Source: Gekko japonicus (taxonomy: Eukaryota). From it: 64,000 nt of DNA. Positions within the stretch are counted from its first letter, which is position 1, and each line of letters starts with the position of its first letter. The stretch lies in assembly GCF_001447785.1 (NCBI RefSeq), contig NW_015175980.1:465586-529585 (forward strand), read 5' to 3'. The translations under genes were made by a program, and so were the position numbers. Below, in pieces: positions 6,587 through 10,154 of the stretch. The notes under the pieces are model-generated. The model saw nothing but the letters and a program-made list of their open reading frames with translations. It had not been told where the DNA came from and searched no databases.

Positions 6587-7414
6587 CTTCACTATCGCAT
6601 GCCAGAGATTTGCAAGAACAAATGCTCGTATGGCTAGCAACCACTGAGCTATCTGAGCATTCTTGGTCGTGTACTGTATACTCGAAAGCATTTTCTTATA
6701 TCCAGATGTTTGAGCCGAAGACATAAAGTTTAGGTAGTCAAGGAAAACGTACGGACTAAGGCTGCTGACAAGTCCTGTAGGGTATTCGCTCAGCGCCGCA
6801 GCCAGGATGGTGTTAAAATCGAGAGGCTGAAACTCCCCGGAGTCTGATCCCTGAAGAAGCGCAAGGCGGAGTTTGTCCTCGATAATCCCCATTTCCAGTT
6901 CCAACAGCTGCTGCTTCTGAGTGTGCTGGAGCTCTGACAGCCAGAAGTGTGCAAACTGAACAAAGTTATCCCCAGAGCCGCTCCATGCACCCAAGTCACT
7001 CATAAAACCATGGGCTTTCCTCTGCCAGCCTGCCACAGCAGTGCTATCAAAGCGACTAAACATCTTCTCAAATGCATCCTTTTCCGGGGAGAAGAGCAAC
7101 CCCAGAAATTGCTTGGCGGGCCCGGCTCTGCCCCCTGCGTCACTCAGAGAAGGTGCCATTTTGTTGCCAATGTGAGGCAGTGGGACAGCTTTAAAGAGAG
7201 TACAGTTCCTGATCTTCAGAGAAAACAGCTCCTGTTGTAGATTCCCGTTTTCCTCCTGGGCACTGTTCCCTAGTGAATGGATCCTCGGAAGGTGAAGAAT
7301 CTCATTCTGCTGACTCAGGGCCTTCCTGTGTACCTGCACAGGCCCCAAGTCATCTTCCTTCTCCAAGTTCATGCAAGATATTGGCAAGGCATGCCTCTCC
7401 TGTAAACTTTGCAT
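6587..7414 (-). CDS. FAM220A: FAM220A (SIPAR)-family protein, main coding exon (276 codons to the donor; 280 aa if unspliced, stop at 6572)
   Basis: Long ORF 6572..7414. The C-terminal FLDYL..QT..YKKML...LLAIRAFVLANLWH resembles the end of mammalian FAM220A as I recall it. Syntenic position head-to-head with RAC1. Donor AAG|gtaaag at 6587/6586. Confidence 0.75.
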
Positions 7415-7470
7415 TGTACAGAACCACAGGGTACGTCGGAACGCTTTGGAGGAGCAGCATAAGTCACGAC

Positions 7471-7491
7471 TTAGTGGATCTCAATATGAAC
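7471..7491 (-). CDS. SMIM10L3: SMIM10L3 (SAGSIN1) coding exon 2: VHIEIH*
   Basis: Acceptor tttttttgtcctag|GTT CAT ATT GAG ATC CAC TAA completes the SMIM10-family C-terminus ...NVRLQ|VHIEIH. Confidence 0.9.
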   Translation of the reverse strand, partial: VHIEIH

Positions 7492-8527
7492 CTAGGACAA
7501 AAAAAAACCACACAGGACAGTTACAACACTCATTGCTGCAAGAGCAGCCAACTGAGGGAAAGTATCTTGCATTGACGCCTCCGTTCTCATGCCTGTTTCA
7601 CTGAATAAACAAGTCTTTCCAAAGAAAATGCAAGTTACCTTTCTACAAAAAGCTTGCTGGAACAAAAAGTTATTTTCTTCCTCTAGAAACTAAAGAACCT
7701 AAAAAATAATGGAACAGTGGTTCTAAGACAGTGGAGCACCTTGCCTAAAATTAGCCCACCCCTGATTAACCAATTACAGTCCCTGGCGGTTAATCCACTA
7801 ACTATGCAGAGACTGTAGCCCTAATGTTCACCTCTTACATAACTCTTCCATGACTCAGTGTTTAAAGACATCCGAAAGCTCCACCCTTAAAGTACTTGAT
7901 CTTCACAGCCCAGTAGAATGAGGCAGTTATTCCAATCATACAAATGCCTGGGCTGTCTTTACGCTCCTCCTAACACTGTTCTAAAGTGCTTCCCATGTTA
8001 GGGACAGTCCATAGAAAAGTTTTAAGACTCAAGAAAGGTTTACTTTTATGGTGTGCATCCTTCCGTCCTTGTGCACATCAGGATCTGTCCTTTTACAAAC
8101 CAACTGCGGAAACCCACTCTTCTGGTCTTGTTAAGGGATGAAAAGCACTGGTAGTCAGCCAGCAAACCAGATGCCAGAATACTTATTACATAAACAATAC
8201 TTCACTCCAACCAATAGGATGCTGGTGTGTGAATTATGAGGTCACCATTAGAATTTACTCTTGAGCGTTATTTTCATTCACGATGCACCTCAGAGCAATC
8301 TCAAAGTTTGGATTCTGTGAAGGCAAGAGCATTTTGAGCTCTTTAGCACATGAAGTGATCTTCTCCACGGAGTGTGTCAAAGCCTAACTCATACTCACAA
8401 GAGAATGGGGTGGTAAAATGGAATGCGCCATTCCAGTTTTGAATACCCCCTCATATTAAAGACTCCATGTGAGCAGAGAACTCCTATCGACCTCTTGTTC
8501 CTTGCTGTACTGATTTTCTGTTTACAG

Positions 8528-8682
8528 GGATAGATTCAGGTGAGTAGCTGTGTTGGTCTGAAGCAACAGAACAAAGTTTAAACTCAGTGGCACATTTAAG
8601 ACCAAGAAAGTTTAAGCTTATACCCATAAGCTTATAAGACTTTATTGGTCTTAAAGGTGCCACTGGACTTAAACTTTGTTCT
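8528..8682. mobile_element. Penelope-like element terminal fragment forming an inverted repeat
   Basis: agaacaaagtt..cagtggcac.tttaagaccaa / ttggtcttaaaggtgccactgg..aactttgttct inverted arms; same family as 11660-12421. Confidence 0.6.
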
Positions 8683-8790
8683 AGGGTGGCTTGTGATCTG
8701 TTTCAGTTTGCTTCTTTTGTTTGATGGTATTCTTTTGTAAATGTTATTGACAGAAATAAAAGTTATTTAAAAAAACCCTTTGTTCTAGGG

Positions 8791-9083
8791 CAGTGGTGGC
8801 GAACCTATGGCACGGGTGCCAGAGGTGGCACTCAGAGCCCTCTCTGTGGGCATGCGTGCCATTGCCCCAGCCAGGGCCAGACCATCATTAAAGTGTCGAA
8901 TTCTCTGCCAAATAATTTTAAGTGAATGAAAGCATCTGGGATTGCTTTCCTTACTTTGTTTGGATCATCTTAAGTTAATGTTTGAGTTGTTTTTTCTAAA
9001 GTAAAACCTCAGTATTCAGGTTAAATAAGTGGGTTTTGGGGCGCAGTTTGGGCACTCGGTCTCTAAAAGGTTCGCCATCACTG
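8791..9083. mobile_element. Non-autonomous hAT transposon (MITE)
   Basis: 16-bp TIRs CAGTG(G/A)TGGCGAACCT and a perfect 8-bp TSD ttctaggg (8783-8790, 9084-9091). Confidence 0.9.
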
Positions 9084-9640
9084 TTCTAGGGGAAACCACA
9101 TATACCACCCCAGCCTCCTTGAAGGGAAGAGTACATAAAGACAGTTACAAGAGTAAATAGATAGCTGACATCACCTCAGATCCTAAGGAGAACAAAACCT
9201 ATATCTTAGCAGCTGAACAAGCATAGTTAGCAGGTAAGATCCAGTATCAATAAGGCCAGATTGAAGGCATATATACACAGTGAGGAAACCAGTTTAACAG
9301 GAATGGACAGACAATCTTGAACAAGATGCAGTAATAGGTGATATTCCCTCTTCACACCAGTGAGGAATGCAGGAACCCAGCTCTCCACTGATGCCCATCT
9401 GGTCTCATTCTCTCTTCCTGAACAGCTTCTCAAGGGACAAGAACTCTACCCGCTCTTACCTCATTCAGAATTACAAACAACCAGGAACCAGCAAAAGAAT
9501 CTGCAGGATGTGGGGAGAGAATAGACCTTCCTTCTCAAGTCTAAGTCTCCACCTGCAGTGTAGTCCAGTGTACCTCAGACCAAGGGAAAAACCCCCCCCC
9601 ATATTTTAAAGTCCCACAGTCCTGACCCAAGCAGGTCACC

Positions 9641-9920
9641 TGGTATAGCCCAGACCTAACTGGATCCAGCAAAGCTCAGACATAGGCAAACCTCCCACAG
9701 TCTAAAGTGGTACAGCCCAGGCAGACCACCTGCACTAGGAAGTGGTACAGCCCAGACAAACCTCCCTCCCACACTCTGAAATGGTGCAGCCCTGACCCAG
9801 GCAGACCTCCTGAACTCTGAAGTGGTACAGCTGAAACTCAGGCAGACTACCTGCAGTAGAAGGTGGTACAGCCCAGACAAACCTTCCCTCCCACACTCTG
9901 AAGTGGTATAGCCCAGACCC
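9641..9920. repeat. Degenerate minisatellite (35-41-bp units, core GTGGTACAGCCCAG) in SMIM10L3 intron 1
   Basis: Core copies start at 9707, 9742, 9781, 9822, 9863 and 9903, with a partial copy at ~9641. Confidence 0.85.
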
Positions 9921-9965
9921 TGAGAAAAAGGCAGGGCCGTCGAGCACCCCCCCCCCCAAGGTCAC

Positions 9966-10154
9966 CTGCAGCCTGACGTTGAGCATCATGGAGGCGACAA
10001 TATACAAATAAGGGAAGTTGATGCGGAGTTTCCAGGCCAAGTCGAAGAAAATGAGGAGGGTGCGAGTCAGCCCCTTGCAGAAGACGCCGTAAGAGCGGGC
10101 GGCCGCCGACTGAGAGAGCCTAACAGCCAGGGCGGACAGCAGTGTCGCCGACAT
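9966..10154 (-). CDS. SMIM10L3: SMIM10L3 (SAGSIN1) coding exon 1, small integral membrane protein 10 family (69 aa total)
   Basis: [63 protein letters not shown] is the characteristic SMIM10-family sequence. 189 nt, donor CAG|gtgacc, phase 0. Confidence 0.92.

Follow-up and report, generated by a model that had tools for sequence, protein, structure and literature searches.

One spliced gecko RNA probably joins the SMIM10L3 and FAM220A reading frames, a pairing that likely predates vertebrates

Introduction

How is the second of two proteins made when both are encoded, one behind the other, on a single messenger RNA (mRNA)? The question is raised by a 64,000-nucleotide (nt) stretch of the Gekko japonicus genome (assembly GCF_001447785.1, contig NW_015175980.1, positions 465,586 to 529,585), hereafter the window, whose minus strand carries the open reading frame (ORF) of the microprotein SMIM10L3 just ahead of that of FAM220A. 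A sequence-only reading of this DNA had proposed that one spliced mRNA carries both ORFs, that FAM220A is reached by leaky scanning or reinitiation, and that nonsense-mediated decay (NMD) ties the stability of the mRNA to FAM220A translation. We consider it likely that a single spliced gecko mRNA does carry both ORFs, that FAM220A is reached by one of these two routes, and that the pairing was inherited from the last ancestor shared by molluscs and vertebrates. Direct observations are the splice, both ORFs, the exon map encoding a 485-residue protein and the adjacency of the two ORFs at four invertebrate loci.

The bicistron itself is already known from mouse and human, and the gecko layout is mostly rediscovery. 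In the available text of PMC12807706, HGNC treats SMIM10L3 as a protein-coding gene lying within the 5' untranslated region of FAM220A, and a title cited there (Ueda 2009) announces that Acpin1 mRNA yields two proteins from two ORFs. The available rows of PMC13303939 (Dataset EV1) place the human pair on one 2220-nt transcript, with SMIM10L3 split into 186 and 21 nt, a 60-nt gap and a single 780-nt block for FAM220A; both ORFs are positive by ribosome profiling (Ribo-seq; 11.4 and 6.9), 79 of 82 long reads hold both, and PhyloCSF is positive for SMIM10L3 only, being negative for FAM220A. These sources agree with the sequence-only reading, which had described the overlap (under the name SAGSIN1/FAM220A) as annotated in human. 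RefSeq, moreover, files both proteins under one gene name in Rhineura, a newt, Petaurus, Dromiciops and mouse, and the Logan protein P0349 runs from SMIM10L3 through the spacer into a FAM220A-like start free of introns, as a processed copy would be. What we add to the known bicistron is the adjacency of SMIM10 and FAM220 in lophotrochozoans, the ankyrin form of FAM220A and a retained intron. We found no report of any of these in the literature searched, although PMC7530721, which catalogues conserved-peptide upstream ORFs of animals by taxonomic range, may already include this one with a lophotrochozoan range.

Results

A spliced gecko RNA probably spans both reading frames

SMIM10L3 starts at an ATG at 10154 on the minus strand, and its first coding exon (9966..10154, 63 codons) ends with NVRLQ at a donor after 9966 (CAG/GT). 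Intron 1 (7492..9965, GT..AG) closes at an acceptor before 7491 (TAG/GTT). Exon 2 then supplies the last six codons, VHIEIH, and a TAA (7471..7491), as the sequence-only reading had stated, giving a protein of 69 residues encoded in the FAM220A leader. The FAM220A ATG was said to lie 57 nt on; the spacer between the cistrons measures 56 nt (7415..7470), the A of the ATG at 7414 being base 57, and the FAM220A coding sequence (CDS) continues to the end of exon 2 (6587..7414).

SMIM10L3 matches Pfam PF15118 (DUF4560) at 125.2 bits, against a cut-off of 27, and is 92–95% identical to bird and mammal SAGSIN1/SMIM10L3 models and 78% identical to a chondrichthyan model. FAM220A matches PF15487 (FAM220) at 190 bits, and its closest named relatives come from geckos. 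One genome match was found for each, with no second copy seen; these counts are lower bounds. To judge by this conservation, both ORFs are under coding constraint, SMIM10L3 as far as chondrichthyans and FAM220 with its ankyrin repeats as far as molluscs.

RNA was mapped over positions 2200–11200 from four of 22 listed runs, three of them raw-read runs from one study (X20, X21 and X22) and the fourth a contig set from another (X1). The joint between 9966 and 7491 is present in all four, in 1, 4 and 1 reads of the raw-read runs and at a contig depth of 26.1 in X1, where a 1111-nt contig covers 10171–9964 and 7489–6587, so that it begins 17 nt ahead of the first ATG and reaches the end of exon 2. 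The 5' leader seen in RNA is accordingly 10155..10171, and the true transcript start lies between 10171 and about 10326, depth being zero at 10327–10627 in the three raw-read runs. Among the 15 joints listed of 17, no alternative joint enters 7491. The joint and contig in gecko, together with the human long-read and Ribo-seq rows, support the proposal of one spliced mRNA for both ORFs.

Mean read depths were calculated over five bins of intron 1, two of exon 2 and 13 of intron 2, omitting two intron-1 repeat bins, four exon-edge bins and the bins above exon 1. In that order they are 0, 19.7 and 19.8 in X21, 1.8, 12.8 and 7.0 in X20, and 0.2, 3.9 and 3.9 in X22. Intron 1 is efficiently removed. 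A rival idea is that the shared mRNA in effect yields SMIM10L3 alone, FAM220A being made from separate, tissue-restricted transcripts (in testis, for instance) that start inside or below exon 1. The Ueda 2009 title, as cited in the available text of PMC12807706, refers to an acrosomal and a salivary-gland protein made by alternative translation; the FAM220A start is preceded by three AUGs in gecko, and bivalves have as many as eight ahead of theirs; and a motif in the invertebrate spacers, described below, could be a promoter element. However, depth in intron 1 beside exon 2 is zero in X21 and near zero in X22, and in human nearly all long reads hold both ORFs, with footprints on each (available rows of PMC13303939). 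We regard separate FAM220A transcripts as very unlikely.

High-copy repeats occur in intron 1 at about 8540–9090 and again at 10929–11200. The intron-1 repeats contain a hairpin element (~8566–8684) with weak scores to microRNA families, and it is here that all five Rfam matches over 1–14000 fall, each below the gathering score.

FAM220A has an ankyrin form and a second intron that seems largely retained

Further exons were sought by tblastn with six homologues against the window and the adjoining 30 kb, yielding four: exon 3 within the window (2409..2509, 101 nt, minus strand) and three ankyrin exons outside it (G000:C16270:462864-462705, 453885-453705 and from 453190). Joined at GT-AG sites, 7491–6587, 2509–2409 and the three outside exons give a frame of 485 residues that is identical to the database protein P0190, whose source label is Gekko japonicus. 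This protein combines a FAM220 domain with ankyrin repeats. In its predicted structure residues 1–109 are disordered, and there is a helical core as well as an ankyrin stack; the top list of a fold search made with it consists of designed ankyrin repeat protein (DARPin) and other ankyrin structures, with nothing specific to the FAM220 domain. Two shorter products are encoded by reading through: into intron 2, where the frame stops at 6572 after 280 residues, and from exon 3 into intron 3, where 310 residues end in VVKER.

Annotated proteins from lizards, snakes, turtles, a newt, marsupials (Petaurus, Sarcophilus, Notamacropus, Monodelphis, Macrotis and Trichosurus) and many molluscs share this architecture. 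Because the marsupial FAM220A models carry the same ankyrin exons, the earlier suggestion that a multi-exon version is confined to non-mammals is incorrect. Among the named rows listed (54 of 54; 120 of 141), none is a FAM220 from a placental, a bird or a fish, in word-based searches that miss divergent members. Exon 1 is in frame with exons 3 and 5, and since the frames match, skipping of exon 2 would fuse 63 SMIM10L3 residues to the ankyrin part. The Trichosurus model P0307 (174 residues) is a SMIM10L3–ankyrin fusion of this type; no such joint occurs among those listed from gecko RNA.

Intron 2 (2510..6586) seems largely retained at steady state. The joint between 6587 and 2509 was found in 2, 0 and 0 reads of the raw-read runs, and in X1 it reaches a depth of 10.3 as against 21.5 for the intron-2 contig. 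Read depth continues beyond the exon-3 donor. An X1 contig would, if colinear, end near 1194 as inferred from record coordinates, and the first AATAAA past exon 2 (1224..1229, minus strand) is the likely proximal polyadenylation signal. The intron-2 depth, the run-on past exon 3 and the end near 1194 together indicate that the main RNA likely consists of exon 1 and a terminal exon of about 6.3 kb, and most gecko RNA seems to keep intron 2. With intron 2 kept, the main RNA would have no junction after the SMIM10L3 stop. Reads were mapped up to exon 3; the joints to the ankyrin exons (4–6) and the 3' end are predicted. Depletion of AATAAA over 7491–1235 was considered and set aside as not significant (0 seen against 2.1 expected, P = 0.11). 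Newt proteins in Logan, where a 287-residue read-through form occurs on 12 contigs and the long form on one, hint at retention there too, although DNA contigs would also give the read-through form.

Within intron 2, the single-copy stretch 3881–4019 shows a bump in depth in all three raw-read runs, with a shared left read end at 3881 in X21 (22 of 51 reads) and X20 (7 of 15). It has no Rfam match and no AATAAA or ATTAAA just above it, and may mark a minor 3' end, represent a small RNA or have arisen as a library artefact in the one study.

Elsewhere in the window, at ~59135–59212, a translated stretch with a lipase-like GHSLGG motif gives a weak tblastn match. It is likely an exon of DAGLB, a neighbour of FAM220A in human.

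Junctions after the SMIM10L3 stop are confined to spliced forms

The sequence-only reading had placed exon junctions far downstream of the SMIM10L3 stop and derived NMD coupling from them. The spliced forms do have junctions 884, 985, 1145 and 1326 nt after that stop, well past the >55 nt that marks a transcript for NMD dependent on the exon junction complex, whereas the intron-2-retaining RNA, seemingly the majority, has none. NMD coupling could thus operate, on geometry, only in the intron-2-spliced isoforms, which look like a minority.

It may nevertheless be that the working transcript is the multi-exon mRNA in its fully spliced form, with its stability tied by NMD to translation of FAM220A, and that the retained RNA is nuclear or an NMD leftover. 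The four distant junctions agree with this, as does the scarcity of spliced joints, an expected result of NMD; the ankyrin exons are both conserved and intact, and introns also follow the small-ORF stop at the four paired invertebrate loci. Poor splicing of the 905-nt exon would account equally for that scarcity, however, and the human pair works with a single-block FAM220A ORF (available rows of PMC13303939). Known human bicistronic cases, too, are reported as NMD-insensitive in the part of PMC3951408 available. Since scarcity of the spliced form fits NMD and poor splicing equally, coupling by NMD is rather unlikely. That a downstream CDS can rescue a bicistronic mRNA from NMD is, in any case, a published principle: PMC3951408 (2014), in its available text, traces the immunity of polycistronic mRNAs against NMD to all of their CDSs jointly, and the text and supplements available do not name this gene.

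Start codons and the spacer between the cistrons

The start contexts are as the sequence-only reading described them. The SMIM10L3 ATG is weak (ttt ATG t, with T at -3 and at +4), and the FAM220A ATG has A at -3. The in-frame Met-Met it reported, said to give an ORF of 13–14 residues, lies at 9984..9989; the ATGs at 9989 and 9986 would yield 14 and 13 residues, both ending at the SMIM10L3 stop, and the second, which opens the 13-codon ORF, has A at -3.

That reading also saw a sign of leaky scanning or reinitiation in the absence of out-of-frame ATGs. The SMIM10L3 CDS indeed contains none, but an ATG in the spacer, at 7460, had been overlooked. Moreover, when the CDS was re-coded synonymously 20,000 times under each of three third-base models, 47%, 17% and 19% of re-codings were likewise free of out-of-frame ATGs; the depletion is within chance (P 0.17–0.47), and we rejected the argument.

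The ATG at 7460 lies 10 nt past the SMIM10L3 stop, in a weak context, and opens a 36-codon ORF (7350..7460) that is out of frame with FAM220A and overlaps its start. In two Varanus FAM220 models (P0012 and P0013) the opening peptide aligns to this ORF, and the sequence continues from there into FAM220. Because they open with a similar peptide, the ATG at 7460 is likely common to lizards, as far as protein models indicate. Both Varanus models lack the usual FAM220 start, either by a lineage-specific frame change or by assembly error.

SMIM10 lies directly above FAM220 at four invertebrate loci

Metagenome contigs were scanned with invertebrate FAM220, giving 10 loci, and these were searched with a profile of 18 vertebrate SMIM10 proteins. 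Four ORFs matched the profile at E 6e-13 to 4e-9, the next best match having E 1.7. Each shares the strand of FAM220 and sits directly above its ATG, with gaps of 136 nt in L006, 167 in L007, 66 in L008 and 86 in L009. All four pass the Pfam DUF4560 cut-off (33.7–42.3 bits against 27), and their divergence is highest at third and lowest at second codon positions in five of five pairs. In a midpoint-rooted tree of 31 FAM220 proteins, L006 and L007 group with Mya, Dreissena and Mactra (100/100), whereas the place of L008 and L009 is beside the molluscs. Introns follow further down in each locus, before the ankyrin exons or the equivalents of exon 3. Proteins of the SMIM10 family, seen as proteins only, also occur in a spider (Nephila, P0384), a louse (Polyplax, P0385) and lampreys (P0341).

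The invertebrate arrangement might instead reflect tight linkage of two separately transcribed genes, the shared mRNA being confined to vertebrates. The pairing is seen there in DNA, and 8, 7, 6 and 2 AUGs lie between the two starts in L006–L009. Furthermore, a shared length of Logan contig (2133 nt) that had suggested a mollusc bicistronic transcript for P0403 and P0235 proved to be chance and was rejected, one partner being bivalve-like and the other gastropod-like. Yet same-strand gaps of 66–167 nt leave little room for a 3' end and a promoter, none of the four spacers as printed contains AATAAA, and the gap size matches that of gecko (56) and human (60). Mere linkage is, on balance, distinctly unlikely.

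The four invertebrate spacers share the 8-mer TCC[G/A]TCCA, at -31, -37, -39 and -58 from the FAM220 ATG in L006 to L009, respectively. In 300 dinucleotide shuffles no 8-mer was shared as well, although no single pair is significant alone. A TCCTCCA in the gecko spacer (7447–7453, at -39) resembles it; we did not accept this as a sure homologue, because it is one base short of the 8-mer and disagrees with the Varanus translation there. A reinitiation element resembling a termination upstream ribosomal binding site (TURBS) was likewise rejected, for the best complement to 18S ribosomal RNA has one mismatch, as do 49% of all 8-mers. The motif does not sit in a conserved fold either: folding was no more stable than in shuffles in five of five spacers, and the gecko spacer has no stable structure.

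Two other Logan length matches, P0360/P0185 (530845) and P0379/P0246 (49206), are hints only. A search of a protein atlas with the L009 ORF gave no useful match. L013 and L015 carry very distant, GC-rich ORFs resembling FAM220 with ankyrin repeats that fall outside all animal rows of the tree; from these, the FAM220 family may be older than bilaterians.

Discussion

On the account we favour, one spliced mRNA serves both proteins, and leaky scanning or reinitiation at FAM220A is plausible. Most ribosomes would translate SMIM10L3. Some would slip past its weak AUG at 10154 and either scan beyond three further AUGs or start at 9986, where A stands at -3, make 13 residues and then reinitiate at 7414. 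An AUG 10 nt past a stop codon is usually too close for reinitiation, and the decoy at 7460 would likely fail to catch reinitiating ribosomes. The abundant RNA, which retains intron 2, probably ends near 1200 and would be junction-free after the SMIM10L3 stop, would encode a 280-residue FAM220-only protein that resembles the human FAM220A ORF with its single block. Spliced forms, which are rarer and encode 310 and 485 residues, would have between one and four junctions downstream of that stop, and only translation of FAM220A would keep them from being NMD-sensitive.

Several points weigh against this account. Joint reads are few, three of the four runs come from one study, and a contig is not a single molecule. 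The libraries are apparently unstranded, so the strand of the intron-2 reads is not given by the data. In gecko, three AUGs intervene between the SMIM10L3 and FAM220A starts. The invertebrate loci are known from DNA, and their 2–8 intervening AUGs fit pure leaky scanning badly; because of them, reinitiation or separate starts are favoured over plain leaky scanning in invertebrates. Six of the 10 loci have no SMIM10-like ORF; five of these have <350 nt of upstream sequence, and L014 has 1318 nt. Finally, the available part of PMC3951408 tabulates known human bicistronic cases as NMD-insensitive.

A bolder version would hold that the bicistronic unit has been kept since the ancestor of protostomes and deuterostomes, that reinitiation is aided by TCC[G/A]TCCA (as found in lophotrochozoans) and that splicing of intron 2 acts as an NMD switch. 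With intron 2 kept, the mRNA would be protected from NMD and give SMIM10L3 and the short FAM220; with it removed, the ankyrin form would be made from an mRNA dependent on FAM220 translation. Placentals would have fixed the protected form and lost the ankyrin exons. We think this combination unlikely.

FAM220A is also known as SIPAR. Binding and repression of STAT3 have been attributed to SIPAR (PMC6032216, in the text available). The human protein looks like a cut-down remnant of an ankyrin-repeat protein still present in marsupials, reptiles, newts and molluscs. The human ORF is intronless probably because ancestral 3' exons were lost. SMIM10L3 is the better conserved partner of the pair. If one mRNA also holds both ORFs in molluscs, the bicistronic mRNA would predate vertebrates and be an exception to the model in which intronless second ORFs arise by retroposition. 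One gecko gene gives rise to junction-bearing as well as junction-free forms, so the locus is suited to a direct test of the rescue from NMD by a downstream CDS.

The closest relatives of the gecko locus are the human and mouse pairs SMIM10L3 (SAGSIN1) and FAM220A (Acpin1, SIPAR), with orthologous ORFs in the same order. As in gecko, the human pair has a 21-nt SMIM10L3 tail in exon 2, and the spacers are 60 nt in human and 56 nt in gecko. Human FAM220A, in contrast, is one block, whereas the gecko gene adds exon 3 and three ankyrin exons to reach 485 residues. Unlike the human pair, gecko also has the retained intron 2; its spacer carries an AUG whose out-of-frame ORF overlaps the FAM220A start.

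In ATF4-type control, a short upstream ORF is followed by an overlapping inhibitory ORF. The gecko mRNA resembles this in having a short, reinitiation-permissive ORF (13 codons, if the AUG at 9986 is used) and then an out-of-frame ORF over the main start; it differs in that a mere 10 nt separate the decoy AUG from the stop and that the product of the first ORF is a conserved protein. An outline of such control is also given in the available text of PMC7530721.

Among the cases described in the available text of PMC13303939, STREMI–SLC35A4, MIURF–MIEF1, PYURF–PIGY as well as ASDURF–ASNSD1 likewise place a conserved microprotein ORF before a conserved CDS. That source places the origin of STREMI–SLC35A4 in jawed vertebrates and explains intronless second ORFs by retroposition, whereas SMIM10 and FAM220 are adjacent already in lophotrochozoans. 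The NMD-immune polycistronic architecture of PMC3951408, as far as its available text describes it, is also like that of gecko, in that all downstream junctions lie under the second CDS and immunity would need both CDSs to be translated. Gecko departs from it in having, in the intron-retaining form, a junction-free alternative.

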